From NCBI GenBank assembly GCA_023137195.1, contig JAGLPV010000034.1:1-25289 (forward strand): a stretch of DNA of 25,289 bases, in the 5' to 3' direction. Both the position numbers and the translations under genes were made by a program. Numbering within the stretch: the first letter of the stretch is position 1; each line of letters opens with the position of its first letter. This DNA is from Candidatus Aenigmatarchaeota archaeon (GTDB lineage Archaea > EX4484-52). Below the pieces are notes generated by a model. The model had not been told where the DNA came from. It saw only the letters and a list, made by a program, of their open reading frames with translations, and did no database searches. Positions 2,071 through 24,155 of this stretch are shown in pieces.

Positions 2071-2694
2071 TTATTTGAAGTTGATGTAAGGCAATCCTGC
2101 CGCAGTTTCTTTAATTTTCTCTTCATTCTTCTGTAAAATTGCCATTGCATCCCAAAGACCATTCAAAAAAGCCTGCCTTCTTCCTTCAAGCATGTCAAAC
2201 TCAACAACATGTTCACCATATCGGATAACTTTTTGGGCAAGGTCTATATCAAATTCGGTTGATGGATTTTGTTTAACATACTCTGCCAATTGAGTTATTT
2301 TTTCAGTAGGCACGATTATTCCGACCAGACCTAAACTTGCGCAATTGCCTGCAAAAATCTCTGCAAAACTCCCGGCGATTACAGCATTAATTCCAAACCT
2401 GTGCAATGCCTGGGGTGCGTGCTCTCTTGAAGAACCGCAGCCATAATTGGCACCGGCAATAAGTATTGTCGCCCCCTTATATTTTTCATCATTCATGGGA
2501 TGTTCTTCTACAGTTTCTCCTTCTTTGAATCTTTCATCAAAATACAAATACTCTCCCATTTTTTTGAATGTGATTTCTTTCATGTATCGGGCAGGAAGTA
2601 TATCATCTGTATTTTGATCATTTGCAGGTTTTGGTATAGCGATTCCTTTTATATTGGTTATGACCTTTTCAGGTATTTTAAATTCGTCCATCAT
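2071..2694 (-). CDS. leuD: 3-isopropylmalate dehydratase small subunit
   Basis: NTDDILPARY, NYGCGSSREHAPQAL and SFAEIFAGNC motifs; GGAGGAGG SD; overlaps the leuC stop. Confidence 0.95.
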   Translation of the reverse strand: MMDEFKIPEKVITNIKGIAIPKPANDQNTDDILPARYMKEITFKKMGEYLYFDERFKEGETVEEHPMNDEKYKGATILIAGANYGCGSSREHAPQALHRFGINAVIAGSFAEIFAGNCASLGLVGIIVPTEKITQLAEYVKQNPSTEFDIDLAQKVIRYGEHVVEFDMLEGRRQAFLNGLWDAMAILQKNEEKIKETAAGLPYINFK

Positions 2695-4100
2695 AATGAT
2701 TCCTCCTCCAGATATTTTCTTGGGTCGGTTATTTTTCCCTCTATCGCTGTGGCGGCAGCCGTAATCGGACTCATCAAATGCGTCCTTCCTATTGGACTTC
2801 CTTGTCTGCCTTTGAAATTCCTGTTCGATGTAGATGCACTTCTTTGAGTTCCCTCTAATTTATCTGGGTTCATTCCAAGACACATAGAGCATCCTGGGTG
2901 TCTCCACTCTGCTCCCGCATCCACAAATATCTTGTCTAATCCTATTTGTTCAGCATGGCGTTTGACAGCTTCAGAACCAGGCACAACCAAAGTTTTTACA
3001 GAAACCTTTTTGCCTTTTAAAATCTTTGCAGTGGCTTCCAAATCGCTTAATCTTCCATTGGTGCAGGAACCAATAAATACAACATCAACAGGAGTTCCCT
3101 GTACTTCTATTCCTCCTTCCAGTCCGATGTATTCCAAAGCATCCTCTGCTTCTTCTTTTTTTTTATCTGTAAAATCATCGGGTTCGGGTATTTTTTCATC
3201 AATTGCGATTGCCTGTCCAGGGTTCACACCCCATGTAACCATTGGCTTTACTTGTGAAACATCAATGCTCAATATATCATCGTACTCTGCATCTTCGTCT
3301 GATGCAATAGATTCCCAGTATTCTACAGCTTTTTCAAAATCCTCTTTTGGAGCATAATGTTTGTCTTTCAAATATTGGAAAGTTGTTTTGTCCGGGTTTA
3401 CATATCCTGAACGAGCGCCTCCCTCTACTACAAGATTGCATAAAGTCATTCGCTCTTCCATGCTCATGTTGTCAACTACATCTCCGCTAAATTCATATGC
3501 AAAGCCAACTCCTCCTTCAACACCTGTTTTTTTAATCATATAAAGAGCTAAATCCTTTGCAGTAACTCCTTCCGAAAGAATTCCGTTAAATTTTACGCAT
3601 CTTACTTTCAACTTGTCCATTGCCATAGTCTGTGTTGCAAGAACGTGGCTAACCTGTGTTGTTCCAATGCCAAATGCAAGCACTCCAAAAGCACCGTAAG
3701 TGCAGGTATGACTGTCGCCGCATACAACTAATTGACCGGGACATATCAATCCCAGTTCAGGATATATAACATGACACACGCCCTGCTTTCCTGAGTCCGA
3801 ACCAAAATAAGTTATGCCAAATTCTTTTGTATTATCTTCAATTGTTTTTGTCATCAATTCCGCCTGTTCATCCTTAAATGGTCTTGAACAATCATCTGTA
3901 GGAATGACATGGTCTGTTACTGCAAATGTAAGTTCCGGATGCTTTGCATTAAGCCCTCTTTCCCTTAACATTTCAAATGCCTGCGGACTTGTAACTTCGT
4001 GCATCATGTGCCTGCCTACAAATATCTGAGTCTGTCCTGTCGGTAATTTCCCGACAATATGGTTTTCCCAGATTTTGTCATATAAAGTTCCTTTGGACAT
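2691..4100 (-). CDS. leuC: 3-isopropylmalate dehydratase large subunit (bacterial type)
   Basis: TLYDKIW, HEVTSPQAF, GDSHT, IGSCTNGR, PGCSMCLGMNPD and STSNRNFKGRQG motifs. Start moved from the track's TTG at 4133 to ATG 4100, which follows an AAGGAGG SD. Confidence 0.97.
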   Translation of the reverse strand: MSKGTLYDKIWENHIVGKLPTGQTQIFVGRHMMHEVTSPQAFEMLRERGLNAKHPELTFAVTDHVIPTDDCSRPFKDEQAELMTKTIEDNTKEFGITYFGSDSGKQGVCHVIYPELGLICPGQLVVCGDSHTCTYGAFGVLAFGIGTTQVSHVLATQTMAMDKLKVRCVKFNGILSEGVTAKDLALYMIKKTGVEGGVGFAYEFSGDVVDNMSMEERMTLCNLVVEGGARSGYVNPDKTTFQYLKDKHYAPKEDFEKAVEYWESIASDEDAEYDDILSIDVSQVKPMVTWGVNPGQAIAIDEKIPEPDDFTDKKKEEAEDALEYIGLEGGIEVQGTPVDVVFIGSCTNGRLSDLEATAKILKGKKVSVKTLVVPGSEAVKRHAEQIGLDKIFVDAGAEWRHPGCSMCLGMNPDKLEGTQRSASTSNRNFKGRQGSPIGRTHLMSPITAAATAIEGKITDPRKYLEEESL

Positions 4101-4101
4101 T

Positions 4102-5196
4102 TTATGCCTCCTTAACGTAATTGCAAGCTGCATCGGTTAATTGGTCAAGGGTTTTCTCTTTGTATTGCGGATTTCTTACATTTTCAAGCGCAGCATTTTT
4201 TATCGCCTCAGCTGCTTTTACCTCGCCAACCTGCTCAAGCAACATTGCATAAGACAAAAACGCAGCTTCCGGCTTTACCTGCTGGATTAAAGATGCGTCG
4301 TATTTCCCGTCAGCACCATACCATTTGTCCGGAGCAGTCCCGTGGATTGGTTCAAACATTGAAGGAAAGCTTCCTGTTGGATTTATATTTCCTGACACTG
4401 CTGTTCCGATACCCCCTTGTATAATAGCACCTGCATCTGTTGCAATATCCCCGAACATGTTTTCTGTCAATACAACATCAAACTGTTTTGGGTTAATAAG
4501 CATCTGCATAAGGAAATTGTCAATGTGCATGTATCTTACATCAATATCCGTCCTGTTTTTATATTCTTCAAAAACCCTTTGCCATGGACTTGCGGCATAT
4601 ACCAGGACATTTGTCTTGAACACAAAATGCATCACCGGCTTGTCTGCTTTTTTTCTTTCAACTGCTCGCTTTAGGGCAAATTCAGCTAATCTCTTTACGC
4701 CTTTGTATGTGCATTTCATTATCTGATATCCTGCTTCTTCATCCGTCCCTTTTTTTTCAATCCATCCGGCATCAACATAAAGTCCTTCTGAATTTTCCCT
4801 GCATATCTCGAAATTGATATCTTTGGCTGTTTTTCCAACTATTACAGAAGGAACACCGTCCGGCAAAATTACCGGTCTTAAGTTAACATACTGGTCAAAT
4901 GCCTGCCTTAGTTTCAGCAATATCCCGACTTCCAATATTCCCGGCTTAATTTTTCCCGGGTCGCCGATAGCTCCAAGAAAAATCTGGTCGTATTTTTTTA
5001 GCTCGTCAAGTTCTTTTTGACCAAGCTCTTTCATGTCGTGCTTTATGAAATAATCAGCATTATAATCAAAGCGTGTGTGCTGAATTGGTCTTGTTAACTT
5101 GTTTTCTGCGGCTTTTACAACTTTCAATGCGGCATCTGTAACTGTTATCCCGTTAAGGTCCCCTGGGAGTACTGCAATGTTGTGATAATTTTCCAT
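4102..5196 (-). CDS. leuB: 3-isopropylmalate dehydrogenase
   Basis: [44 protein letters not shown] and [10 protein letters not shown] motifs; directly upstream of leuCD. Confidence 0.9.
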
Positions 5197-5424: not shown

Positions 5425-6252
5425 CTAGAAATAAATCTCAGAAAATTTGTTCATGAGCTCTTTTGTTGTTGAACCAACACCACCATCACCAATCTTTGTT
5501 TTATCTATTTGAACAACAGGAACAATCTTTTTTGTTGTGCCCGTGATAAACACTTCATCTGCTTTTTTCAGTTCATTAAGAGTAAGTATATCTTGAGATA
5601 CAGGGAAGCCAATATTTGTTGCCATTTCAGCAACTTTTAGTGCTGTTACGCCAGGTAAAACATTTTGTGATGGCGTTTTTATCTTTTTGTTTTTTATTGC
5701 AAATATATTAAAAGTACATCCCTCTCGGACAGTGCCATTTTCTTCTACAAAAAGTGCATCGTCATAGCCTCCTTTTTTGGCGTTCAAAAATGCAAGTACT
5801 GATGGCATAAAGCTCAAATTTTTTGTTTGTGGAAATACGCGAAGAGTATTAGTAGTTTGCAATTTTATTCCCTGCTCGTATTCTTGCTTATCTAAAAAAT
5901 CGATTTGGGAAGAAAAAATAATCAGATTTGGTTTACATGTTTCACTTGAGTAGATAGGAATATCCTTTTCTCCACGAGTAATTGTTATTCTTATACGTCC
6001 ATAGTTATGATTGTTTTTTTGGATTGTTTCCTCAATTAGATTAATCAATTCTTTTTTTGACCAGGGAATTTTTAGATATATTTGATTACAACCATCTAAC
6101 AATCTATTAATATGTTCTTCTAGCCAAAAAATTTGACCGTTGATTGCTGCAATAGTATCAAAAACACCATCTCCATAGAGTAAGCCGTGATCAAATACAG
6201 AAATCTTGGCTTCTTTTTCATTAACAAATTTTCCATTTATACAAACTATCAT
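5425..6252 (-). CDS. Class IV PLP-dependent aminotransferase (IlvE/D-amino-acid transaminase/PabC family), substrate uncertain
   Basis: DHGLLYGDGVF, EEHINRL, RITITRG, catalytic K in QTKNL, EG..FN, LPGVT and DEVFITGT motifs; AAGGTGA SD; TAG TAG double stop. Confidence 0.85.
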   Translation of the reverse strand: MIVCINGKFVNEKEAKISVFDHGLLYGDGVFDTIAAINGQIFWLEEHINRLLDGCNQIYLKIPWSKKELINLIEETIQKNNHNYGRIRITITRGEKDIPIYSSETCKPNLIIFSSQIDFLDKQEYEQGIKLQTTNTLRVFPQTKNLSFMPSVLAFLNAKKGGYDDALFVEENGTVREGCTFNIFAIKNKKIKTPSQNVLPGVTALKVAEMATNIGFPVSQDILTLNELKKADEVFITGTTKKIVPVVQIDKTKIGDGGVGSTTKELMNKFSEIYF

Positions 6253-6664: not shown

Positions 6665-7342
6665 ATAGTAAAATACATAGATTTATCACATACATTTGAA
6701 GATAGAAGGCCTGGTTTTAAGATGAAAAATGAGGATGGATCATATACTCAATACACAGCAAAAATCCATCCATTCCTGACACATCAACAAACAAAACCAA
6801 AATTCCATGGTAAATGTTCTTTTGAGATTACAGAAATGACTTTTCAGACTTCAGTCGGGACATATTTGGATTCGCCATTCCATAGATATTCAAATGGCAG
6901 GGATATTAGTGAATTAAAAATTGAAGAGCTTATTTTAACCGAGATTGTAATTGATGTTAAAGGTGAATTTGAAGCAATAGGTCTAGATGCAATTCCAAAA
7001 AAAATTGATTTGAAAGGAAAGGCCGTTCTCTTCAATTTTAGATGGGATGAATATTGGGGGACTGAAAAGTACCAATCTTATCCATTTATCTCAAAAGAAG
7101 TAGTTGAATTTTTAATAAAATCAGGAGTTAAACTTGTGGGTGTGGATACTGTGAATATTGATAGTTCTAAAGATTTAACAATACCAGCACATAGCTTATT
7201 TTTGAAAAAAGAAATTTTTATTGTTGAAAATTTAACAAATGTAGATAAATTACAAGATAAAAAATTTACTTTTTTTGCTGTTCCGATTAAAGGGAAAAAG
7301 ATTGCAGCTATGCCAATCCGAGCCTACGCACAGGTCGAATAA
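6665..7342 (+). CDS. Cyclase / kynurenine-formamidase-like metal-dependent hydrolase; canonical start missing
   Basis: GTYLDSPFH, VGVDTVNID, AH..F, IVENLTN and PIRAYA motifs. The family N-terminal motif KYIDLSH lies in frame upstream of ATG 6722 and is preceded only by ATA/ATT codons. Confidence 0.8.
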   Translation: MVKYIDLSHTFEDRRPGFKMKNEDGSYTQYTAKIHPFLTHQQTKPKFHGKCSFEITEMTFQTSVGTYLDSPFHRYSNGRDISELKIEELILTEIVIDVKGEFEAIGLDAIPKKIDLKGKAVLFNFRWDEYWGTEKYQSYPFISKEVVEFLIKSGVKLVGVDTVNIDSSKDLTIPAHSLFLKKEIFIVENLTNVDKLQDKKFTFFAVPIKGKKIAAMPIRAYAQVE

Positions 7343-7372
7343 AACTCTCCTACACTTTCTACCTCCGGTTTG

Positions 7373-7395
7373 ACATTTACTAAATGTTCTTTTTT
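7373..7395 (+). terminator. Weak hairpin plus T-tract after the cyclase gene
   Basis: ACATTT-act-AAATGT followed by TCTTTTTT. Confidence 0.3.
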
Positions 7396-7521
7396 CACAA
7401 TTTTTACACAAGCAAATTTTTTGACGAAAAACAATAAAAACCACCAATATAATGTTTTTAATGTCATAAATAAAGTTCTGACATAAAATATACTTTATTT
7501 AGATACGAAAAAATTTTCATG

Positions 7522-7772
7522 TTGTGTCTAAATTGGCATACGAGATACAGTTTATACACAATAAAGAATTTGACAGTTAGACTTATGTCTTTATTCTTAA
7601 AATCATTGTGAAGAAACTTCTATTGATAATTAATGTAAGACTCTTTTATTGTTTTTTAATTGTTGTGCAAATTAAAGGGAAAGATTACAAAACATTAAAA
7701 GTAGTAATTGGCGTAAGACTCTTTTATTGTGTCTAAACTCCTATCTTGCGTACAAGTTTAGACACAATAAAA
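7522..7772. repeat. Cluster of inverted and direct repeats (MITE/IS-end-like remnant)
   Basis: Perfect 18-bp inverted repeat 7722-7739/7755-7772; degenerate copy in the opposite orientation at 7522-7575; exact 18-bp direct repeat GTAAGACTCTTTTATTGT at 7635-7652 and 7713-7730. Confidence 0.75.
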
Positions 7773-7774
7773 AA

Positions 7775-9607
7775 TCAACAACTCTTATTATACAACAGAT
7801 TGGCTCCTTCCTCAAATGCCTCAATACTTGCAACAAGAATATCCGGGCTGGTTCCCATCGCAATTACAGACACATTATTTTTTTCATCCTTTACAGCCAT
7901 TTTAATATCTACAACAGCATCAGCATGCTTGGTATTTATTTTTACCTGGTAATCTGTCAAGGCATAATTCATATTGTTTTTGGCAAGAACTTTCTGGAAT
8001 GCTTTAATCAAAGCATCTACCGGACCGACACCGTCAGATGATTCTTCATATTCTTTGTTTTCGTATTCCAGCTTGATATTTGCAACAGGTTTTTCCTTTT
8101 TACTCGCAGTTACGCCAAAGTCAATAATTTTTATTGTTTTTTCTTTCCCTTTTCGTATGCTGTTTTCTACAATCATCTGCAAATCAGACCGTTTTATTTC
8201 TTTTCCTTTGTCAAGGAAAGATGTTATCTGATCTCTTGCATTGACTAAATCCGAATTCATTATATCAACATCAAACTCGATTTTTACAGTTTTCTTTAAT
8301 TGCTCTTCTGTTGGAATCTTGTCAAACAATATTTTTTTGTCTTCTGCATCTGTATTTGCAGAACAAATCTGGTAGAATTTCTTGTCCAAAAACCTGTCCA
8401 CTTCCGAATCCACAGGGTTAATTACAGGGGATGTCGGAAGCACTTTCAATACAGATGTAGGGTCTTTCAAGCCAGCGCCGGTCATTACAATTACAATTTT
8501 TTCATCTTTGTTTACCTTTTTCATCTCTACTAATTTTTGCAGTGCTGCAAGACCTGTTGCGGCAGAAGGTTCCACGAAAATAGATTCTGTTTTTGCCAGG
8601 AGTTTCTGGGCATTGAGAGTTTCTTCATCTTTCACATCCAGTGCCATGCCATTGGAATCATAAATTGCTTTCAGGATTTTTTTCCCGTCTAATGGTTCGC
8701 CTACGCATATGGCAGAGGCAACAGTAGCTGGTTTGTCCTGTATTTCGTAATTCATTGTTTGTTTTTCATAAGCGCACACAACCGGGTTTGCCCCGCTTGC
8801 CTGGACGCCAATCATCTGCGGAAGAGAGTCAATAAACCCGAACTTCTTGTATTCTGTAAACCCTTTCCATATTGCAGAAGAATTTGTCCCGCACCCGATA
8901 GGGATGATAAGTTTGTCCGGAGCCGTCCAGTTCAATTGTTCTGCAATTTCATATGCCTGGGATTTTTGCCCTTCTGCCCTGAACGCATAATCGCCGCATA
9001 AATAAAAATCATGCTTTTGGCTCAGATTAATTGTTAATCTTACTGCATCTGCATAAGTTCCTCTTATCTGGATTAATTTTGCCCCGTAAGAAAGAGTCTG
9101 CGCCAGTTTTCCAATCGGTGTTCCTTCAGGCACAATCACATAGCAGGGAAGTCCTGCTTTGGAGGCAAAGGCAGAGACAGATGCTGCCATATTTCCTGTC
9201 GATGCGCAACAGACAGCTTTTTTCCCAAGTTCAAGCGCTTTTGTTATCTCGACCATCGTTCCCCTGTCCTTGAAAGCTCCTGTTGGGTTCGCCCCTTCAT
9301 ATTTAATATACAGATGATTTAGTCCAAGCATTTTTCCAAGAGTTTTACATTCATACAAAGGAGTATTCCCCTCGTTTAAACTCACTATTTTGCTCATATC
9401 CTCAATAGGATAAAAATTAAGATATTTCAGGCTGCTGATTGGCGCAGTCTTAATTAGATGCATGTTTAATTTTTCAGTGATTTTGTCATAATCATACACT
9501 ACATCAAGAGCACCACCGCAGTCCATACAATTGGAAGAGGTCTCTTCTTCTTTCCATTCCTTTTTACAGTCAACACATATTAGTTTATATAATTTTTTAT
9601 TTTCCAT
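7775..9607 (-). CDS. thrC: Threonine-synthase-family PLP enzyme fused to the LeuA/CimA subdomain II and allosteric (LeuA_dimer) domain
   Basis: N-terminal CxxC..CxxC, LNEGNTPL, NPTGAFKDRG (PLP Lys113), ASTGN, RAEGQKS, EPSAA and TGAGLKDP. The C-terminal ~120 aa carry GVGPVDA, LTDYQV and GTSPDILVASIEAF. The symbol indicates family only; the reaction is uncertain. Confidence 0.85.
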   Translation of the reverse strand: MENKKLYKLICVDCKKEWKEEETSSNCMDCGGALDVVYDYDKITEKLNMHLIKTAPISSLKYLNFYPIEDMSKIVSLNEGNTPLYECKTLGKMLGLNHLYIKYEGANPTGAFKDRGTMVEITKALELGKKAVCCASTGNMAASVSAFASKAGLPCYVIVPEGTPIGKLAQTLSYGAKLIQIRGTYADAVRLTINLSQKHDFYLCGDYAFRAEGQKSQAYEIAEQLNWTAPDKLIIPIGCGTNSSAIWKGFTEYKKFGFIDSLPQMIGVQASGANPVVCAYEKQTMNYEIQDKPATVASAICVGEPLDGKKILKAIYDSNGMALDVKDEETLNAQKLLAKTESIFVEPSAATGLAALQKLVEMKKVNKDEKIVIVMTGAGLKDPTSVLKVLPTSPVINPVDSEVDRFLDKKFYQICSANTDAEDKKILFDKIPTEEQLKKTVKIEFDVDIMNSDLVNARDQITSFLDKGKEIKRSDLQMIVENSIRKGKEKTIKIIDFGVTASKKEKPVANIKLEYENKEYEESSDGVGPVDALIKAFQKVLAKNNMNYALTDYQVKINTKHADAVVDIKMAVKDEKNNVSVIAMGTSPDILVASIEAFEEGANLLYNKSC

Positions 9608-9618
9608 TTTAACACTCC

Positions 9619-9643
9619 GAGGACAAAAATTAAATTTGTCCTC
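9619..9643 (-). promoter_or_regulatory. 9-bp perfect hairpin between the ridA stop and the thrC SD
   Basis: GAGGACAAA-(7 nt)-TTTGTCCTC, immediately followed on the minus strand by GGAG-tgttaaa-ATG. Confidence 0.5.
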
Positions 9644-10032
9644 TATCGAATAATAATCTCTGCTATTGCGTCAATCTCTATTTGTGCACCTTTTGGAAGT
9701 TTTGCGACACAAACAGTTGAACGTGCAGGTTTGCTTGTAGAAAAATAAGAAGAATATATTTCATTTACTTTAGAAAAATCGTCAATGTTTGTCAAGTATA
9801 TTGTTGTTTTGACCACCATTTCAAGACTGCTATCGGCGGCCTCAAGAACAGCTTTTATATTGTCCAGAACCTGTTTTGCCTGGACTTCAATGCTCTCATC
9901 CATGAATTCCTGTGTCTGTGGGTTTATTGCAATCTGACCGGAAAGATAAACAATATTGTTTATTTTCACAGCCTGTGAATAAGGACCAATTGCATCCGGT
10001 GCATTACTGGTGCTTATTATTTCTTTGGACAT
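9643..10032 (-). CDS. ridA: RidA family reactive enamine/imine deaminase
   Basis: APDAIGPYSQA, SGQI, VVKTTIYL, F..VNEIY, PARSTV (catalytic Arg) and LPKGAQIEIDAIA motifs. Confidence 0.93.
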   Translation of the reverse strand: MSKEIISTSNAPDAIGPYSQAVKINNIVYLSGQIAINPQTQEFMDESIEVQAKQVLDNIKAVLEAADSSLEMVVKTTIYLTNIDDFSKVNEIYSSYFSTSKPARSTVCVAKLPKGAQIEIDAIAEIIIR

Positions 10033-10054
10033 AACCCTTAAATAACTGCATAAT

Positions 10055-10062
10055 TTTATAAA
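10055..10062. promoter_or_regulatory. Palindromic TATA box, putative bidirectional promoter for ridA-thrC and ilvBNC
   Basis: TTTATAAA lies exactly 22 nt from the ridA ATG (10032) and 22 nt from the ilvB ATG (10085). Neither gene has a strong SD. Confidence 0.7.
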
Positions 10063-10084
10063 TCTAAATTATCGTATTGGGACT

Positions 10085-11797
10085 ATGAAAGGAAGTCAGA
10101 TGATTTTAAATACACTGAAAGACAACGGAGTAAATACAACTTTTGGATATCCCGGTGGATCAGTAATCCCTTTGTTTGATGCAGTCTATAATGACAATGA
10201 GTTCAGGAATATTCTTGTCAGGCATGAGCAGGCAGCAGCCCATGCGGCAGACGGGTATGCGAGGGCATCCGGCAATGTCGGCGTTGCGATAGCAACAAGC
10301 GGTCCGGGAGCGACAAATTTAGTGACAGGACTTGGCACAGCATATTATGATTCTTCTCCCGTACTTGCTTTCGGAGGACAGGTTTCTGTAAATTTCTTAG
10401 GCAAAGATGCATTCCAGGAATCAGACATGATGGGAATAACCCTCCCAATCACAAAACACAATTTCCAGATAAGAAACCCTGATGATATAAATGCAACAAT
10501 CAGGAAAGCAATCAAGATAGCAACAAGCAGGAGACCGGGACCAGTATATGTAGAACTGCCAAAAGAATGCCAGGTCGGAGACATCACAAAACCAAATCCG
10601 AAAACAGCAGAGGTTCTAAATTGCGGTCCTATGCCAAGAGCAAAAAAAGAAGACATAAAAAAACTCGCAGACGGTCTGCTTAATACTCAAGCCCCTCTTA
10701 TTTTGGTAGGAGGAGGAGTTTTATTAGCAAATGCATCTGGGCAGATAAATAAACTCATAGAACTGCTTAACATCCCTGTGGCAACAACACTCATGGCAAA
10801 AGGAGTAATCCCGGACAATCATCCTCTTAACCTCGGGATGATAGGTATGCACGGCAGGAAGAGCGCAAATTACGCAATTATGAATGCTGACCTGATAGTT
10901 GTTTTGGGATGTAGGTTTTCAGACAGGATTACAGGAGATACAGATGCATTTGCAAGAGATGCAAAGATAATACAGATTGACATTGACTCATCTGAAATAA
11001 ACAAGAACATTGATATTGACATGTCCATAATAGGAGATGTAAAATCAATCCTTGATGATCTTTTAGCAGTCCTTAAAATGAAGATAAAATCGCCGAAACA
11101 GACAGATTGGTCAAAGAAGATGAAAAAGATAAAACAGCTTTGTTGTTGCGATATAGATATTGGAAAAACTCCAATTGACCCGAGGAAAGTGATAAAGGAA
11201 ATAAATGCTGCAATAAAAGACACGGATATTGTCACAACCGGCGTAGGACAGCACCAGATGTATGCCGCTCATTTCCTTGAAAGAAAATACCCCAGGACAT
11301 TTATTACCAGTGGAGGATTCGGCACAATGGGATCCGGATTCCCTTTTGCAATAGGTGCAAAAATAGCAAAGCCGGATGTTGAAGTTATTGACATAGACGG
11401 GGACGGCTCGTTTATAATGAACTCACAGGAGCTTGCAACATGTAAGGAAGAAAACATTAAAGCAACTCCTGTAATTTTAAACAACAATTATCTTGGAATG
11501 GTAAGGCAGTGGCTGGAAATATTTTACGGCAGGAGGTATTCACAGGTGGGTTTGGGGAATACCACGGATTTTGTAAAGATGGCAGATGCTTACGGATTGG
11601 AAGGGATATTGGTGGAAAAGCCGTCTGAAATTAAGGATGCTCTGAAAGAGGCAATGGGAAATGATGAGACTACTATTGTAAATATTATGATAGAGAAAGA
11701 GTCCAATATACTGCCTATGCTTCCGCCGGGAGGGACATTAAAAGAGGCATTTGGTGGGTGCATGGAACAGGCAGGATATGAGTGCTTTGAGAAATAG
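10085..11797 (+). CDS. ilvB: Acetolactate/acetohydroxyacid synthase large subunit
   Basis: FGYPGG, RHEQ, TSGPGATN, GQV, AFQE, MIGMHG, RFSDR, VGQHQM, TPP motif GDGS...LNN and GMVRQW. Confidence 0.97.
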   Translation: MKGSQMILNTLKDNGVNTTFGYPGGSVIPLFDAVYNDNEFRNILVRHEQAAAHAADGYARASGNVGVAIATSGPGATNLVTGLGTAYYDSSPVLAFGGQVSVNFLGKDAFQESDMMGITLPITKHNFQIRNPDDINATIRKAIKIATSRRPGPVYVELPKECQVGDITKPNPKTAEVLNCGPMPRAKKEDIKKLADGLLNTQAPLILVGGGVLLANASGQINKLIELLNIPVATTLMAKGVIPDNHPLNLGMIGMHGRKSANYAIMNADLIVVLGCRFSDRITGDTDAFARDAKIIQIDIDSSEINKNIDIDMSIIGDVKSILDDLLAVLKMKIKSPKQTDWSKKMKKIKQLCCCDIDIGKTPIDPRKVIKEINAAIKDTDIVTTGVGQHQMYAAHFLERKYPRTFITSGGFGTMGSGFPFAIGAKIAKPDVEVIDIDGDGSFIMNSQELATCKEENIKATPVILNNNYLGMVRQWLEIFYGRRYSQVGLGNTTDFVKMADAYGLEGILVEKPSEIKDALKEAMGNDETTIVNIMIEKESNILPMLPPGGTLKEAFGGCMEQAGYECFEK

Positions 11798-11809
11798 ATT
11801 AATAAGATT

Positions 11810-12301
11810 ATGAAAACATACATTATTTCAATACTGGTCGCAGATGAGCCAGGCGTTTTATTGAAATTATGCGGCTTGTTTGTCAGGAGAGGTTTTAATA
11901 TCAACACAATCGCTGTCGGCTCAACCGAGAAAAAAGGACTTTCCAGAATAATGATAACCCTTAATTCTGATGGGAAAAAGATAACCCAGCTAAAAAAGCA
12001 ATTAATCAAGGTAATAGATGTGGTGGGCGTCTCTGATTTGACAGAAAATACAATAGTAGAGGAATTGTGCTTGATTAAACTGGGCATAAACGGGGAAAAA
12101 GAAAGGGATGAAATCATAAATAATGTAAATCTATTCAAGGCAAAAATAATAGACATAAACAAGACAAACATAATCATCCAGATAACAGACCGACCGAACA
12201 AAATCAAGAATTTTATTGACGTTTTATCCGATTACGAGATAGTAAAGATTACAAGAACAGGAACCGTAGCAATCAAGGACATCGGAACTAATAATAATTA
12301 A
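11810..12301 (+). CDS. ilvN: Acetolactate synthase small regulatory subunit
   Basis: ACT domain (DEPGVL, LFVRRGFNI), KQL.K.IDV, EL.LIK and C-terminal RTG.VA; lies between ilvB and ilvC. Confidence 0.92.
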   Translation: MKTYIISILVADEPGVLLKLCGLFVRRGFNINTIAVGSTEKKGLSRIMITLNSDGKKITQLKKQLIKVIDVVGVSDLTENTIVEELCLIKLGINGEKERDEIINNVNLFKAKIIDINKTNIIIQITDRPNKIKNFIDVLSDYEIVKITRTGTVAIKDIGTNNN

Positions 12302-12313
12302 ATAAGGATTAAT

Positions 12314-13309
12314 ATGGAAGAAGCAAAAATATATCACGACGCAGATGTAACAACATCTGTTTTAGAAGGCAAGACAATAGCTGTAATTGGCTACGGTGCA
12401 CAAGGCAAAGCTCAGGCAAACTGCATGAAAGATTCAGGATTAGATGTGATTGTAGGTTTAAGAAAAGATGGTGCTTCATGGCAAAAAGCCATCGACGACG
12501 GGATGAATGTTGATGAAATAAGTGAGGCGGCTAAAAAGGCAGACATCATCCATATTTTAATACCGGACGAGATACAAAAGACTATTTACGATGAGCATAT
12601 CAAAGAACATGTTACAGAAGGAAAAGCAGTCAGTTTTTCCCACGGGTTTAACATCACTTACAAGCAGATAGCTCCGCCTCAAAATGTTGATGTAATTATG
12701 GTTGCTCCAAAATCCCCGGGGACAGAGGAAAGAAAAAGATACTTGGAAGGATTCGGAGTGCCGGGACTTGTTGCAGTTGAAAACGACTACAGCGGGAATG
12801 CAAAAGACACAGCTCTTGAGATGGCAAAAGCAATGGGTTTTACAAGAGCAGGAGTTTTTGAATGCACATTCAACCAGGAGACATATTCTGATTTATTCGG
12901 TGAACAGTGCGTACTTTGTGGCGGAATGACAGAATTGATTAAAGCAGGATTCGAGACACTTGTAAAAAGAGGATACCCTCCACAGATGGCATATTTTGAA
13001 TGTATGCATGAAGTGAAACTTATTGTTGACCTTCTTTATGAAGGAGGAATGCAGCACATGTGGCATGTTGTGTCGAACACAGCAGAATACGGCGGAAGAA
13101 CAGTTGGTCCAAAAATAATCACAGAAGAGGCAAAGCGGGAAATGGAAAAAGCATTGGACAGGATTGAATCAGGCGAGTTTGCAGAAGAATGGCTTAATGA
13201 ATACAGGAGTGGAAACAAAAATTTCAATGAACTGAGGAAGGCAGAAGAAAGCCACGAGATAGAGATTACTGGTGCAAAAATCAGGAAGTTGTTCGAAAAA
13301 AAAGAATAA
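12314..13309 (+). CDS. ilvC: Ketol-acid reductoisomerase (class I)
   Basis: IGYGAQG, GLR..GAS, FSHGFN, VAPKSPG, DLFGEQ.VLCGG, AYFEC.HE and SNTAEYG motifs. Confidence 0.97.
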   Translation: MEEAKIYHDADVTTSVLEGKTIAVIGYGAQGKAQANCMKDSGLDVIVGLRKDGASWQKAIDDGMNVDEISEAAKKADIIHILIPDEIQKTIYDEHIKEHVTEGKAVSFSHGFNITYKQIAPPQNVDVIMVAPKSPGTEERKRYLEGFGVPGLVAVENDYSGNAKDTALEMAKAMGFTRAGVFECTFNQETYSDLFGEQCVLCGGMTELIKAGFETLVKRGYPPQMAYFECMHEVKLIVDLLYEGGMQHMWHVVSNTAEYGGRTVGPKIITEEAKREMEKALDRIESGEFAEEWLNEYRSGNKNFNELRKAEESHEIEITGAKIRKLFEKKE

Positions 13310-14501: not shown

Positions 14502-14948
14502 ATGGAATATGAAGAAGTAAAAAGAGGTCGCTCATTTATCCTGAAATTTGAACACAAGGATAATTTTCTGGACGAGTTATTGTCTTTTGTAAAAGAAAAG
14601 CAGATACGAGCCGGGAAAATTGAAATAATCGGCGCCTTAAAAAACGCAAAAGGTGCTGTTGGACCACAAACAGATGAACTCCCGCCGACACCAGTCATAA
14701 AAGAAATAAATAATGCGCATGAAGTTGTGGGCGTCGGGACAATTTTTTGGCAGGATGACGAACCAAAGTTACATCTACATTGCGCAATAGGGCATAAAGA
14801 TGATGCAAATGTAATATGCATCCGGCAAGATACAGAAGTCTTTATTGTAATCGAAGCAATATTGCAGGAATATGTAGAGACTACCGCAGAAAGAAAAATT
14901 GATGAGGAAATTAAGATGCCGCTTTTGAGTTTTGAACCCCTTCCTTGA
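14502..14948 (+). CDS. PPC/DUF296 domain protein (AF0104-like)
   Basis: IGAL, E..GVGTI, P.LHLH..IG (HxH Zn motif) and VFIVIE; typical length. Confidence 0.85.
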   Translation: MEYEEVKRGRSFILKFEHKDNFLDELLSFVKEKQIRAGKIEIIGALKNAKGAVGPQTDELPPTPVIKEINNAHEVVGVGTIFWQDDEPKLHLHCAIGHKDDANVICIRQDTEVFIVIEAILQEYVETTAERKIDEEIKMPLLSFEPLP

Positions 14949-15073: not shown

Positions 15074-16399
15074 ATGAATTTTCTGGAAAAATTATTTGGG
15101 AAAAGAGAAAAGACTAAAAGAACAAAAGAGACAGAAGAAAAACCACTCTGCGTAACAATAAAATTTGAGCAGGCAAACGCATTTCTTAAGGAGACTGCCG
15201 CCCCTTTCCTAGAATCAATAAATGACATGACAGACAGTGCCATAAAAAACATCAAAGACCATTTCAAAGACCTTGATGAGAACCTTGATGCTTTGGAAAA
15301 AGCAGTGCCTGAAGAACATGCAGAAGACAGACCAAGGAAACTTATGCTCGGCAACAGGGCTGCCTTTATAAGAAAAGTAAAAACATTTGAAAATAATATT
15401 GCCTTTCCATCCACAAAAGTGGTGCCGAAAATCAGGGAATTCTATAAATCTCTTATAATGGATATGAATGTACTGCTAAAAGATACACACAAAAACATCT
15501 ACTTTTCGAACATGCTTTTTCCTGATGAGATGGAAAAAACAATAGGCAGTTTAAGAGAGATGGGGCATATTGCAGACCAGTCGATAAAGGAGTTGGACAG
15601 CAACAAAGAAAAAATAGAGATGATTGAACAGGCGGAAAATAACATAAAAAAAGTGCATGACCTCACAACAAAAAAGAAAACTATTTTTCAAAGTCAAAAG
15701 AAAAGCAAAGAAAACATTAAAGAACTCCAAAGAAAGAAAGAAGAACTGATTAAAGAACTTGATTACCTCAACACCAGCGAAGAGAGAAAGACTCTGGGAA
15801 AAGAAGAAGAAAAACTTAAATCTCTTGAAGAAGAAATAGACAATATAAGAAACACAATAATCAATATGTTCTCGCCCCTGTCAAAGACCATGAAAAAATA
15901 TGAAAGAGACAGTGCAGGACTAAGCAAAGAAGAGAGAAATACGCTTTGCCTGTATATTGATTCGCCCGTAGAAGCATTAATTGGAGACAAGGATATGAAG
16001 ACTCTTGACAAGATAATTCTCAATGCAGAAAATATGATAAAAGAGGGAGGAATAACTCTAAAGGATAAAAAGCAGGAAGAAAAGATACTTCATCATATGA
16101 GCCGGCTAAAAAATCACGAAGAGTTAAAAGACATTCTTGTTGGTTATGAACGAACTAAAAGACAGGCAGAAGAGACAAGCAACTCTATAAAGGACATGAA
16201 TATAAGCGAAAGAATATCATCAACAGAGCATGAACTTGCGGCTTTAAATGAAAATATTGTGACAGAAAAAGAGAATATGGCAGGACTGGGAAAATCTATT
16301 CCTGAAGTCGATAATGAGATATTATTGAAGGTAAAAGAGCTGGAGAATGAACTAAGTGGGATTTCTGGGAAGGATGTGACGATGAGTATTGATTTATAA
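15074..16399 (+). CDS. Hypothetical K/E-rich coiled-coil protein
   Basis: 441-aa ORF with heptad-like K/E/L stretches; no Walker motifs recognised. Confidence 0.75.
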   Translation: MNFLEKLFGKREKTKRTKETEEKPLCVTIKFEQANAFLKETAAPFLESINDMTDSAIKNIKDHFKDLDENLDALEKAVPEEHAEDRPRKLMLGNRAAFIRKVKTFENNIAFPSTKVVPKIREFYKSLIMDMNVLLKDTHKNIYFSNMLFPDEMEKTIGSLREMGHIADQSIKELDSNKEKIEMIEQAENNIKKVHDLTTKKKTIFQSQKKSKENIKELQRKKEELIKELDYLNTSEERKTLGKEEEKLKSLEEEIDNIRNTIINMFSPLSKTMKKYERDSAGLSKEERNTLCLYIDSPVEALIGDKDMKTLDKIILNAENMIKEGGITLKDKKQEEKILHHMSRLKNHEELKDILVGYERTKRQAEETSNSIKDMNISERISSTEHELAALNENIVTEKENMAGLGKSIPEVDNEILLKVKELENELSGISGKDVTMSIDL

Positions 16400-16482: not shown

Positions 16483-18108
16483 ATGAAATCAGACATCTTA
16501 AAAAACAGCATAGAAACCCTTCCTCACAGAGCACTGCTGATGAGTGCGGGATTAAAAAAAGAAGACTTTTCAAAACCATTTATTGGTGTCGCAAACAGCT
16601 ATAACGACATAATCCCCGGGCATATTCATTTAAATGAATTAACCAAGGAAGTTAAACGCGGAATCAGGGATGCCGGCGGAGTTCCATTAGAATGGGGTGT
16701 CCCGGGCGTCTGCGACGGCATTGCAATGCATGTTGAAATGAGATTATCCCTTCCATCGCGAGACCACATTGCCGATAATATAGAAATAATGACATTAAGC
16801 CATTCCCTTGACGGATGGGTTGGAGTCACAAACTGCGATAAAATTACACCAGGAATGCTCATGGCAGCAGGACGCCTGGATTTGCCTTCGATAATCCTTA
16901 CTGGTGGACCAATGAAAGCAAATACTGGAGCTGACGGGAAGAAACACCACCCTATTGAAGGGTTTGGTATTGCCGGTCAGGTTCTGGGCGGAAAAATGTC
17001 AGAAGAAGAGGCAAACAAAATGCTTGATTGTATGGTTTGCGGCGCCGGATCATGCGTCGGTCTGTTTACTGCAAACACAATGGCAACAGTGACAGAGGTA
17101 TTGGGAATGTCTTTGACCGGCTGTTCAACAACACTTGCCATAGACCCGTTAAAGAAAAAGCAGGCATATGAGAATGGGGAAAAAATAGTAGAACTTGTAA
17201 AAAGCAATACAACTCCTTCTTCAATTATGACAAAGCAGGCTTTTGAAAATGCAATTATGGTCGATATGACGATGGGTGGAAGCACAAATGCAGTATTGCA
17301 TATCATTGCAATCGCAAAAGAATTGGGCATAGAAATTTCAACAGATTTGTTCGATGAAATTTCAAAGAATGCTCCAAATCTCTGCCATATAATCCCAGCA
17401 GGACCTTATGAAATGTCAGATATTGACAGGGCGGGTGGCGTTCCGGCAGTATTAAACAGGCTCAAAGATATGCTAAAAGACAGCCCGACAGTAAATTCAA
17501 AATCAATAAAGCAAATCGCAGAAGAGGGTCGCGTATCAGATGATGAAATAATAAGACCTTTAGACAATCCATATTTTAAAGAAGGAGGCATCGCAGTCCT
17601 GAAAGGAAATATTGCAGAAAGCTCTGTAATAAAACAAACAGCAGTATCACAGGATATGATGAAACATTCGGGACCTGCAAAGGTATATTGCACAGAAGAT
17701 GATTTGCTCCATGCAATAAGCGCAAAAAAAATCGCAGAGGGAGATGTTGTTGTTCTGTCTTTCCAGGGACCTTGCGGAGCACCCGGAATGCCCGAAATGC
17801 TCACCCCCACAGATGCAATCAAGGGAGCGGGATTCAAAAAAGTCGCCTTAATAACAGACGGAAGATTTTCGGGCGGAACAAGCGGACCATGCATCGGACA
17901 CATTGAGCCAGAAGCATATCTTGGCGGAAATATTGGTGCAATAAAAGATGGAGATATAATTGAAATAGACATCCCCAATAGGACGCTTGAAGTAAAATTG
18001 ACAGATGAACAAATAAAAGCAAGATTAAGTGAAGTAAAAACTCCGGAAAGAAAATTAAGCCCTTTTTTGAAAAAATACAGGGAAAACAATACACGAAAAA
18101 AAGAGTAA
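16483..18108 (+). CDS. ilvD: Dihydroxy-acid dehydratase
   Basis: KPFIGVANS, PGHIHL, VCDGIAM, CDKITPG, GSCVGLFTANTM, GGSTNAVLH, GP.G.PGMPEML and LITDGRFSG motifs. Confidence 0.97.
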   Translation: MKSDILKNSIETLPHRALLMSAGLKKEDFSKPFIGVANSYNDIIPGHIHLNELTKEVKRGIRDAGGVPLEWGVPGVCDGIAMHVEMRLSLPSRDHIADNIEIMTLSHSLDGWVGVTNCDKITPGMLMAAGRLDLPSIILTGGPMKANTGADGKKHHPIEGFGIAGQVLGGKMSEEEANKMLDCMVCGAGSCVGLFTANTMATVTEVLGMSLTGCSTTLAIDPLKKKQAYENGEKIVELVKSNTTPSSIMTKQAFENAIMVDMTMGGSTNAVLHIIAIAKELGIEISTDLFDEISKNAPNLCHIIPAGPYEMSDIDRAGGVPAVLNRLKDMLKDSPTVNSKSIKQIAEEGRVSDDEIIRPLDNPYFKEGGIAVLKGNIAESSVIKQTAVSQDMMKHSGPAKVYCTEDDLLHAISAKKIAEGDVVVLSFQGPCGAPGMPEMLTPTDAIKGAGFKKVALITDGRFSGGTSGPCIGHIEPEAYLGGNIGAIKDGDIIEIDIPNRTLEVKLTDEQIKARLSEVKTPERKLSPFLKKYRENNTRKKE

Positions 18109-18139: not shown

Positions 18140-19042
18140 ATGGAAAAACCAAAATCCGATTTTGTCTGGATGAATGGGAAATTCATAAAATGGCAGGACT
18201 CAAATGTCCATATAACAACACACGCACTGCATTACGGCTCAAGTATATTTGAAGGCATAAGATGCTACAATACAAAAAATGGTTCGGCAGTATTTAAATT
18301 AAAAGAGCATGTAAAACGATTTTTCGAGTCCGCAAAAATATACCGGATGGAAATTCCATACAGCAAAGAAGAAATCCAAAAAGCAATAACCGAGACTATT
18401 AAAAAAAACAACTTGAAAGAATGCTATATCCGTCCATTGGCATACAAAAATGATGAAGGAATGGGACTGAATCCCTTGAACATATGTGTTGATGTTGCAA
18501 TAATGGTGTGGTACTGGGGATCATACCTCGGTGACGGTGCAATTGACGTAAAAGTTTCCTCATGGAACCGGATGGCTCCAAATACATTTCCTGCGCTTGC
18601 GAAGGCAGGAGGTAATTATATAAATTCCCAGCTGGCAAAAATGGATGCAGTAATTAATGGTTATGATGAAGCAATAATGCTGAATACAAATGGTTTTGTA
18701 ACTGAAGGGAGCGGCGAAAACTTATTTTTAATAAAAGACGGCACAATCTACACACCTGCTCTTTCAGATTCCGTCCTTAAAGGAATAACAAGAGCTTCTG
18801 TTATGTGTATTGCAAAAGAGATGGGATACATTCTAAAAGAAGAAACAATCCCGCGCGAGATGTTATACATCGCAGATGAATTATTTTTCACAGGTACAGC
18901 CGCAGAAATTGCTCCAATAAAAAGCGTAGATAAAATAAAAATTGGAAACGGCAAAACCGGACCTGTAACGCAAAAGATAAAAGACAAATTCCTTTCTATA
19001 TTAAAGACAGGGGAACCAAAAGAATGGTTTGGTTTTGTTTGA
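18140..19042 (+). CDS. ilvE: Branched-chain amino acid aminotransferase
   Basis: HALHYG..IFEGIRCY, YIRPL, AKAGGNYINS, EGSGENLF, LKGITR and FFTGTAAEIAPI motifs; follows ilvD. Confidence 0.95.
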   Translation: MEKPKSDFVWMNGKFIKWQDSNVHITTHALHYGSSIFEGIRCYNTKNGSAVFKLKEHVKRFFESAKIYRMEIPYSKEEIQKAITETIKKNNLKECYIRPLAYKNDEGMGLNPLNICVDVAIMVWYWGSYLGDGAIDVKVSSWNRMAPNTFPALAKAGGNYINSQLAKMDAVINGYDEAIMLNTNGFVTEGSGENLFLIKDGTIYTPALSDSVLKGITRASVMCIAKEMGYILKEETIPREMLYIADELFFTGTAAEIAPIKSVDKIKIGNGKTGPVTQKIKDKFLSILKTGEPKEWFGFV

Positions 19043-23183: not shown

Positions 23184-24155
23184 CTATCTGATTTCGTCTC
23201 TTACTTCATCTGCCGCAAGGCACATATTCTTTAATTTAGCAAAGGCAATATCAGAGGGAAGCAGTTTAACGCCACAGTCCGGGTCAACATACACTTTTTT
23301 CGGCTCGACAATCTCAAATGCCCTGCGGATATTTTTCTTTATCTCTTCAACATTTTCCACGCGCCGTGTATGGACATCAAGACATCCGAAGCCGATATCT
23401 TTTGTATAGTCGTACTTTTTGAAAACTTCAACATCACAGAAATTTTTGTTTGCAAATTCAAAGTCGAACTGGTCTGTATTGAATTCCAGGATGTCAGGAT
23501 ATATCTTAGAATAATCCCCGTAGCATATATGTATCCCTGTGTATGCCTTGATTCCACGCGTTGCAATCTCTATTGAATTTTTCGCGATTTCCAATTCTTC
23601 CGGGTGCGTAGGGATTGCCGGGTCATCTATCTGGATATAATCTGCCCCTGCCCTGACAAGTGCTTTTAGTTCCTTGTTTATGACTTCAGCAAGCTCGTAT
23701 ATCGCCTCGTCTTTTTTGGAATAAAATTCATTAAAGCTCCAGTCAACAATTGTATATGGTCCTGTTATCGGGACTTTTATGCCTTTGCTTGTAATAGTTT
23801 TGAGGTATTTGTACTCAGGTATTGTCAACTCATCCCTGTATTTGAGTTTATCTACTATCGCGGGTTTTCTATAGTAGTTGTTGCCCCACACCCTAACATC
23901 GCCGTAGATTTTAAAGCCATCTATATGATCTGCAAAATATGATGTCATCTCATCTCGCCTCATCTCGCCGTCCCAGAGGATATCGATCCCTGCTAATTCC
24001 TGTTCTTTTACAACAGTTTTTATGGAATCCGTATAGGACTGTTCCAGGACTTTGTCCGAAACTCCGCCGTATTTATGATCTTTTATCATTTTATTGAGCC
24101 ATTTTGGTTTTGGATAACTGCCGACAATGGTTGTTGGTAATAGTTTTTTAGTCAT
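23184..24155 (-). CDS. metE: Cobalamin-independent methionine synthase, catalytic half (split MetE2)
   Basis: PTTIVGSYP, DGE.RR, TGPYTI, IQIDDPA and Zn ligands HIC, E(FAN) and PDCG. The ATG at 24155 follows a GAGGTGA SD. Confidence 0.9.
   Translation of the reverse strand: MTKKLLPTTIVGSYPKPKWLNKMIKDHKYGGVSDKVLEQSYTDSIKTVVKEQELAGIDILWDGEMRRDEMTSYFADHIDGFKIYGDVRVWGNNYYRKPAIVDKLKYRDELTIPEYKYLKTITSKGIKVPITGPYTIVDWSFNEFYSKKDEAIYELAEVINKELKALVRAGADYIQIDDPAIPTHPEELEIAKNSIEIATRGIKAYTGIHICYGDYSKIYPDILEFNTDQFDFEFANKNFCDVEVFKKYDYTKDIGFGCLDVHTRRVENVEEIKKNIRRAFEIVEPKKVYVDPDCGVKLLPSDIAFAKLKNMCLAADEVRDEIR

Follow-up and report, generated by a model that had tools for sequence, protein, structure and literature searches.

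The stretch of DNA considered here, referred to as the window, comprises 25,289 nucleotides of contig JAGLPV010000034.1 from a Candidatus Aenigmatarchaeota archaeon (GenBank assembly GCA_023137195.1). It contains a gene in which a threonine synthase (ThrC)-like domain is fused to a LeuA_dimer domain, situated beside ridA and among the ilv genes of a branched-chain amino acid (BCAA) cluster. The window was annotated by Pfam and NCBIfam scans of its 22 open reading frames (ORFs). The features that bear on the fusion are as follows.

7775..9607, minus strand: ThrC-like::LeuA_dimer fusion gene, 610 amino acids (aa), predicted 2-oxobutyrate-forming enzyme (domain and equivalog scans, AlphaFold2 model)
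9488..9607, minus strand: four-cysteine Zn-ribbon of the fusion, residues 1-40 (C11, C14, C27 and C30 invariant in 43/43 homologues)
8477..9385, minus strand: fold-type II pyridoxal phosphate (PLP) domain of the fusion (PALP, PF00291), residues 75-377, with Lys113 and the altered pocket M140, G205, D206 and C239
7793..8200, minus strand: LeuA/CimA-type allosteric LeuA_dimer domain of the fusion (PF08502), residues 470-605, 91.6 bits
9643..10032, minus strand: ridA, Rid-family imine/enamine deaminase (TIGR00004, PARS motif)
10033..10084, no strand: ridA-ilvB divergent intergenic region, 52 bp, AT-rich, presumed shared promoter region (sequence read only)
10085..11797, plus strand: ilvB, acetohydroxyacid synthase large subunit (TIGR00118, 721 bits, cut-off 538)
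11810..12301, plus strand: ilvN, acetohydroxyacid synthase small subunit (Pfam scan)
12314..13309, plus strand: ilvC, ketol-acid reductoisomerase (Pfam scan)
16483..18108, plus strand: ilvD, dihydroxy-acid dehydratase (Pfam scan)
18140..19042, plus strand: ilvE, branched-chain aminotransferase (Pfam and NCBIfam scans)

ridA lies upstream of the fusion gene on the same strand, 35 bp away, and its start codon is 52 bp from that of the divergent ilvB; the AT-rich spacer contains TTTATAAAT. The ORF scans thus bear out an earlier, sequence-only reading of the window, which had placed ridA and the fusion head-to-head with ilvBNC, and the 35-bp spacing suggests that ridA and the fusion gene are co-transcribed. 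The ridA product belongs to the Rid family by its score on TIGR00004 (181 bits, cut-off 106.25) and keeps the conserved arginine motif (‘KPARS’ / ‘PARS’). As the same reading had stated, no ilvA or cimA is found among the 22 ORFs by either set of models.

The PLP part of the fusion is closest to short threonine synthases. It matches 2zsj, 6cgq, 2d1f and 1uim in phmmer searches (E 1e-78 to 7e-68), and the protein passes two threonine synthase equivalog models, with 309.3 bits on NF006050 against a cut-off of 303 and 274.8 bits on TIGR00260 against 167.1. The IlvA models are not reached (TIGR01127, 108.1 against 378.75 bits; TIGR01124, 64 against 411.3 bits). An AlphaFold2 model built with 43 homologues (mean pLDDT 84.7, pTM 0.72) has ThrC structures as its best Foldseek matches (target-normalised TM-score 0.78-0.85), with short ThrCs at 0.82-0.85 and 38-43% identity. 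The fold is fold-type II PLP, K113 is aligned to K61 of 1uim, and cysteate synthase (9k3c) is also among the structural matches.

The C-terminal part has a different origin. A LeuA-like stretch starts near residue 409, and the last ~200 residues align to positions 313-503 of the bacterial LeuA model (82 bits, the best NCBIfam match), whereas CimA models score lower (53 and 34 bits). A Pfam scan of the protein finds PF08502 as the regulatory domain, and neither Thr_dehydrat_C (PF00585) nor the HMGL-like TIM barrel (PF00682) of LeuA and CimA catalysis. The sole sequence match of this part in the PDB is 3f6g/3f6h (E 4.7e-7), with the molecule name ‘alpha-isopropylmalate synthase’, which we take to be the Leptospira citramalate synthase domain with isoleucine. 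In LeuA, PF08502 senses leucine. In CimA it responds to isoleucine (PMC13381585). The sequence evidence on the effector of the fusion is divided: LeuA models outscore CimA models, yet the sole PDB sequence match is 3f6g.

The sequence-only reading had also pointed to altered ThrC motifs, and all three (ASTGNM, CGDYAFR and PIGCGTN) are present in the fusion. The changes are not chance decay: all 43 aligned homologues, at 48-82% identity, share M140, G205, D206, Y207, R210, G238, G240, T241 and N242 without exception; C239 is not on that list and is present in all nine fusion rows of a second alignment. This second alignment comprises 14 non-fused ThrCs from fusion-bearing genomes and nine fusion proteins. 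STGNT and NSxN(P/S)xR are kept in 12 of the 14 non-fused paralogues, 11 of which also keep GNAGN (L090 has GNAAN). The two other paralogues, both divergent and on long branches, are L106, which differs in every one of the three motifs, and L107, which differs at GNLGN. In each of the nine fusion proteins the motifs are instead STGNM (SSGNM in two), G-DY-xxR and GCGTN.

When residues are counted in the HMMER alignment with 1uim, the ThrC of Thermus thermophilus, K61 and R160 are kept as K113 and R210, whereas T88, N154, S155 and N188 are replaced by M140, G205, D206 and C239, and the NSxNPxR loop is one residue shorter. T88, N154, S155, R160 and N188 are reportedly the ligands of the substrate phosphate; all five numbers fall on conserved polar motif residues, which fits this role. 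If so, four of the five phosphate ligands are replaced in the fusion, one of them (S155) by the acidic D206, and the arginine alone is kept. The mapping is consistent with the proposal that the altered positions line the phosphate pocket. In ThrC, the released phosphate steers the reaction towards threonine instead of 2-oxobutyrate.

The fusion is widespread. Each of the best 120 protein-search matches has the two-domain ThrC-LeuA_dimer architecture, and every name that sources give to fusion relatives among them is ‘threonine synthase’. A pattern scan covering one genome per species finds 471 stretches, each from one species genome, that encode a relative; the best 80 of the 471 come from DPANN archaea, Patescibacteria and Methylomirabilota, with a few bins under other labels. 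A quick tree was inferred by maximum likelihood (LG+G4) from 91 rows and 400 columns, omitting four of the 80 loci since the gene is cut by a contig end. All 77 full-length PLP domains of fusions group together in it (SH-aLRT 99), apart from a clade (98) of 13 non-fused paralogues; the fourteenth such paralogue, L106, served as outgroup. Within the fusion clade are an archaeal subclade (nine rows, as starred set), a Methylomirabilota-type subclade (30 rows, support 100) and a Patescibacteria subclade (37 rows, support 97), with L087 at the base.

Gene neighbourhoods were compared by tblastn of the window's proteins against the best 80 loci (E <= 1e-8, coverage >= 0.4). At least one ilv gene is found in 36 of the 80, distributed as follows.

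Archaeal clade: 9 loci; ilv gene in 7; ridA adjacent on the same strand in 7
L013 (partial archaeal): 1 locus; ilv gene in 1; ridA adjacent
Patescibacteria clade: 37 loci; ilv gene in 28; ridA in 13, next to the fusion in 8
Methylomirabilota-type (grouped by script): 25 loci; ilv gene in 0; ridA in 0
Other unplaced loci: 8 loci; ilv gene in 0; ridA in 0

In 24 of the 37 Patescibacteria loci, ilvE, ilvD or ilvB is directly downstream on the same strand, and the usual order is fusion-ilvE-ilvD-ilvB-(ilvN)-ilvC-(ridA). One Methylomirabilota locus has glyQ and glyS upstream and putA and panE downstream, and the fusion stands alone; this neighbourhood (glyQS, putA, panE) was considered as a functional clue and gave no hint. 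The fusion gene of one bacterial genome (G133:C22:16547-18370) has 40 in-frame TGA codons and the ilvC of the same genome has 12, while the IlvA-like gene of another (G253:C21:10392-11522) has 26. These are consistent with TGA-recoding Patescibacteria lineages and with a fusion family that spans genetic codes.

Fifty fusion-bearing genomes (G001-G050) were surveyed for the genes that an isoleucine or threonine pathway requires; they are mostly incomplete bins, in which absence means ‘not found’. No match to ilvA_1Cterm over its cut-off is found in any of the 50, and Thr_dehydrat_C (PF00585) is found in 0/50 compared with 5/14 control genomes, so that no regulated IlvA is detected in 50/50. KARI_C, marking ilvC, is present in 46/50. 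TIGR00977 citramalate synthase exceeds its cut-off in one genome (G014), and no LeuA-family match at E <= 1e-20 is found in 15/50. Homoserine dehydrogenase (PF00742) is present in 28/50 and not found in 22/50, and 21 of these 22 have ilvC. The fusion is the sole ThrC-family match in 18/50 genomes, 15 of which also have no homoserine dehydrogenase match, while 32/50 have at least one further ThrC match. The window's genome and these 32 keep a second thrC, as the sequence-only reading had expected, and in the other 18 none is found. All Methylomirabilota-type genomes have a further match, which is a canonical short ThrC (300-342 bits) in eleven of them (G037, G041-G050) and long-type in G040.

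The exception to the incomplete bins is G023, a single 1.37-Mb chromosome record with ilvB, ilvC, ilvD, ilvE and the ridA-fusion pair. No homoserine dehydrogenase, other ThrC, IlvA-like gene or LeuA-family gene is found on this chromosome. Without homoserine dehydrogenase, G023 would not itself supply the substrate of a threonine synthase, and without IlvA or a LeuA-family enzyme the fusion would be the sole source of 2-oxobutyrate for its isoleucine/valine pathway.

Two fusion-bearing Patescibacteria, G022 and G028, in which PF00742 homoserine dehydrogenase is likewise not found, encode a LeuA_dimer-ThrC-kinase operon (L114, G022:C5:31438-35415; L116, G028:C1:150138-154169). In the operon, a stand-alone LeuA_dimer protein (137-138 aa) is encoded together with a ThrC of the long type (427-452 aa), a P-loop kinase that resembles AAA_33/shikimate kinases, and a further PALP enzyme. 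The kinase may phosphorylate homoserine or act elsewhere in the threonine pathway as a non-canonical enzyme, and the free LeuA_dimer protein may regulate in trans.

Co-distribution was examined in two samples. Among 42 genomes of the window's phylum, all of one order and some identical to G001-G005 by their match coordinates, ilvC is found in 11; 8 of these 11 have the fusion, either complete or as fragments at contig ends, compared with 0 of the 31 genomes that lack ilvC. As a control, 401 genomes of one class of Patescibacteria were sampled, of which 78 have ilvC; the fusion is present in 49 (two as contig-end fragments) and absent in 29. A full-length IlvA-like gene is found in 0/49 genomes with the fusion and in 15/29 without it (one a contig-end fragment). 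These matches score 250-305 bits over model positions 1-378 in frames of 397-431 aa and are under the equivalog cut-off. Fisher's exact test gives p = 2e-8, which is overstated as related genomes are not independent. One fusion-bearing genome, G126, encodes a 319-aa catalytic-only dehydratase, and eight of the 78 genomes have none of fusion, IlvA-like gene and citramalate synthase.

The window itself is contig C28 of a genome of 1.42 Mb in 57 contigs. Only three PALP-family genes are found in this genome. One is a second, long-type ThrC of 470 aa on contig C4 (Thr_synth_N, PALP and THR4_C; 268.7 bits on TIGR00260). Convergent with it is an apgM-family gene (L002:2630-3841, minus strand), a candidate homoserine kinase that passes both TIGR02535, ‘proposed homoserine kinase’ (554.6 against 446.3 bits), and the cofactor-independent phosphoglycerate mutase model NF003242 (567.4 against 426 bits), so that its role is ambiguous. 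Contig C39 encodes homoserine dehydrogenase, leuA and a second ilvE. Searches of the genome for IlvA give a best non-fusion match of 27.6 bits, and those for a Cys_Met_Meta_PP route give a partial best match of 41 bits.

Taken together, the loss of the phosphate site, the LeuA-type module, the adjacency to ridA, the ilv operons, the occurrence in genomes without homoserine dehydrogenase and the exclusion of IlvA point to a regulated 2-oxobutyrate-forming enzyme in the place of IlvA. The 2-oxobutyrate-forming role put forward in the sequence-only reading is supported in this way by comparative genomics. On balance it is probable that the fusion is a BCAA-regulated analogue of threonine ammonia-lyase that is derived from ThrC and no longer makes threonine. 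Its ilv linkage and its mutual exclusion with IlvA match the pathway role of IlvA, a likeness of function and not of family. The protein is a descendant of the ThrC family that departs from ThrC in its substrate site and pathway context, and it probably functions as IlvA does while standing outside the IlvA family.

Domain architecture, residue replacements and their invariance, gene neighbourhoods and genome distribution are observed directly; we infer the substrate, product, effector and role of RidA in the following route. The fusion would have descended from a short, Zn-ribbon-type threonine synthase, whose PLP-binding lysine (K113) and remaining fold it retains. It would deaminate L-threonine by beta-elimination to 2-aminocrotonate/2-iminobutyrate, which the co-encoded RidA would hydrolyse to 2-oxobutyrate and ammonia. 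The RidA family hydrolyses enamines and imines of this kind when they are released. Acetohydroxyacid synthase, encoded by the divergent ilvBN, would then take 2-oxobutyrate into isoleucine synthesis, and the LeuA/CimA-type domain would provide feedback control by a branched-chain amino acid, with isoleucine as the logical effector. Threonine is the most likely substrate because it requires no upstream pathway and because threonine synthases are able to deaminate it. Deamination of threonine to 2-oxobutyrate is described for Microcystis aeruginosa ThrC in vitro and for the Thermus and Bacillus enzymes at high threonine (PMC12172450).

Several observations weigh against the fusion being an IlvA analogue. 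Both NCBIfam threonine synthase cut-offs are still passed, and three genomes that have homoserine dehydrogenase show no ThrC other than the fusion. An unregulated, catalytic-only dehydratase-like match is present in 7/50 fusion genomes (258-336 bits in G011, G038, G039, G040, G045 and G049; 142 and 108 bits in G046, where it is split over two adjacent frames). In addition, tblastn finds no ilv or ridA neighbour in the 25 Methylomirabilota-type loci, and neither fusion nor ilvA is detected in three ilvC-bearing genomes of the window's phylum (80-89% complete). The window's genome is 84.8% complete, so that ~15% is missing. Leucine could be the effector rather than isoleucine, since the C-terminal part scores 82 bits with LeuA and 53 bits with CimA.

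Alternative sources of 2-oxobutyrate count on the same side. TIGR00977 citramalate synthase is found in 18/49 fusion-bearing Patescibacteria (one a contig-end fragment under cut-off) and in 6/29 without the fusion (Fisher p = 0.2), and in 0/15 of the IlvA-bearing genomes of this class. There is thus no anti-correlation between citramalate synthase and the fusion: the fusion excludes IlvA and does not exclude CimA. Among control genomes, Thermus, Thermotoga and Sulfolobus match both CimA and IlvA models at the thresholds used, which shows that citramalate synthase and an IlvA-like gene can occur together outside this class. A CimA-like paralogue of 528-530 aa is present in the sister genus (G001:C40, L119:3568-5154; G005:C118, L120:2982-4574), with the Leptospira-type (R)-citramalate synthase as best model (386-398 bits, cut-off 950); its orthologue is not found in the portion of the window's genome that is available. 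G010 has two LeuA-family genes. Contig C15 of the window's genome encodes an HMGL-like catalytic domain of the LeuA family, 341 aa long and without LeuA_dimer (G000:C15:3281-4060; L008:1492-2517), which is under every NCBIfam equivalog cut-off, has LeuA catalytic domains as its best PDB matches and lies beside a weak UbiA-like gene and a DUF6879 gene, both uninformative. It may be an unregulated citramalate synthase, a homocitrate synthase or another synthase. Because such CimA and LeuA-family paralogues coexist with it, the fusion is not always the sole possible source of 2-oxobutyrate. The sequence-only expectation that fusion genomes lack both ilvA and cimA therefore held for regulated ilvA (50/50) and full-length IlvA-like genes (49/49), and failed for cimA.

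Of the alternatives, a gamma-eliminating lyase, which would form 2-oxobutyrate from O-phosphohomoserine, homoserine or its esters, or methionine/homocysteine, survives best and is nevertheless unlikely. Gamma-elimination is the opening step of ThrC chemistry, the evidence from operons, ridA and IlvA exclusion fits any 2-oxobutyrate-forming reaction, and the remodelled pocket is strictly conserved and not drifting, which suggests that it still binds a ligand. O-phosphohomoserine and homoserine are nevertheless poor candidates, as 22/50 fusion genomes, including the single-chromosome G023, have no homoserine dehydrogenase match and four of the five phosphate ligands are replaced, one by aspartate; the phosphohomoserine lyase offered as an option in the sequence-only reading is disfavoured on these grounds. 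There is a slimmer chance that the fusion combines gamma-elimination with its rebuilt pocket (Met, Gly-Asp-Tyr, Cys) to act on a four-carbon amino acid without a phosphate group, e.g. methionine, homocysteine or a homoserine ester, taken up from a host or from the surroundings, and so yields 2-oxobutyrate. If true, this would be a previously unknown entry into isoleucine synthesis in episymbiotic archaea and bacteria.

It is improbable that the fusion catalyses another fold-type II PLP reaction (serine deamination, cysteate-synthase-like beta-replacement or racemisation) and that its link to ilv genes is regulatory or coincidental. Relatives of ThrC have diverged to other reactions, as the cysteate synthase among the structural matches illustrates, but the ilv association recurs in archaea and bacteria, IlvA is excluded, and no conserved partner genes of another pathway are found nearby. 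Least likely of all is a true threonine synthase that has come under the allosteric control of a branched-chain amino acid. In favour of this reading, the fusion passes NF006050 and TIGR00260, no second ThrC homologue is found in 18/50 genomes, and all sources that name the protein call it threonine synthase. Against it, 15 of those 18 genomes are also without a homoserine dehydrogenase match, a distinct ThrC lies next to a candidate homoserine kinase in the window's genome, the ligands of the phosphate are replaced, the neighbours are ilv genes and ridA and not hom or thrB, and the mutual exclusion with IlvA is not what such an enzyme predicts.

The rest of the window contains further BCAA genes and several features at a distance from the fusion.

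2071-5196, minus strand: leuD, leuC, leuB (Pfam and NCBIfam scans)
5425-6252, minus strand: class IV aminotransferase (Pfam and NCBIfam scans)
6722-7342, plus strand: cyclase-family gene (Pfam and NCBIfam scans)
7722..7772, minus strand: perfect 18-nt inverted repeat with a 15-nt loop (arms 7722-7739 / 7755-7772), directly 3' of the fusion stop codon
13644-14486, plus strand: ORF of 280 aa without Pfam or NCBIfam match
14502-14948, plus strand: PCC-domain (PF03479) gene
15074-16399, plus strand: ORF of 441 aa without Pfam or NCBIfam match
23184-24179, minus strand: Meth_synt_2 gene 1 (domain scan)
24148-25131, minus strand: Meth_synt_2 gene 2 (domain scan)

The inverted repeat may be terminator-like or a binding site. 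It lies in the 430-bp, AT-rich intergenic region 3' of the fusion (7343-7774), in which a related motif, AGTTTA[T/G]ACACAATAAA (17-21 nt), recurs at 7549-7569 and a 33-nt direct repeat is found at 7627 and 7705. The two unmatched ORFs surround the PCC-domain gene between ilvC and ilvD, and in two loci of sister genomes (L009, L011) the PCC gene likewise adjoins the fusion or ilvD. The two overlapping Meth_synt_2 genes both carry the catalytic domain of cobalamin-independent methionine synthase, and the pair resembles an archaeal-type MetE that has been split or duplicated.

If the fusion is an IlvA analogue, at least 471 species-level genomes gain the first step of isoleucine synthesis that they had seemed to lack, among them Methylomirabilota methanotrophs and many DPANN archaea and Patescibacteria with seemingly incomplete ilv operons. 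It would also correct a systematic misannotation as ‘threonine synthase’, through which metabolic reconstructions of ultra-small symbionts predict threonine prototrophy too often and miss prototrophy for isoleucine. The change from synthase to lyase by deletion of a product-directing phosphate site would be a clear non-orthologous displacement, and the LeuA-type allosteric domain would be the first found to control a PLP enzyme. No description of a ThrC-LeuA_dimer fusion or of a ThrC-based route to 2-oxobutyrate was found in the open literature (subscription journals and preprint supplements were not covered).

Several known systems resemble the fusion in part. The short Zn-ribbon ThrCs (NF006050/PRK08197; 2zsj, 6cgq, 2d1f, 1uim) share its fold, FKDRG lysine motif and Zn-ribbon. 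The fusion differs from them in the replacement of four of the five reported phosphate ligands, the loop deletion, the ~200 LeuA-derived C-terminal residues, its position in ilv and not thr operons, and its separate clade. Mammalian THNSL2 phospho-lyase is a ThrC homologue that yields 2-oxobutyrate and acts on O-phosphohomoserine, whereas the fusion lacks the phosphate ligands and often occurs in genomes in which homoserine dehydrogenase is not found. IlvA (TIGR01124/TIGR01127, with Thr_dehydrat_C or an ACT-like domain) likewise joins a fold-type II PLP enzyme to a C-terminal allosteric domain, and has the same predicted place in the pathway and a complementary distribution; the catalytic domain of the fusion is of ThrC descent, its regulatory domain is of LeuA descent, and it has no Thr_dehydrat_C. 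The ThrC of Microcystis aeruginosa is a ThrC-family protein that makes 2-oxobutyrate from threonine, as proposed for the fusion, but it still prefers O-phosphohomoserine and has no LeuA domain, and the source mentions no fusion (PMC12172450). LeuA and CimA share PF08502 with the fusion, but in the fusion this domain is attached to a PLP enzyme instead of an HMGL-like TIM barrel.

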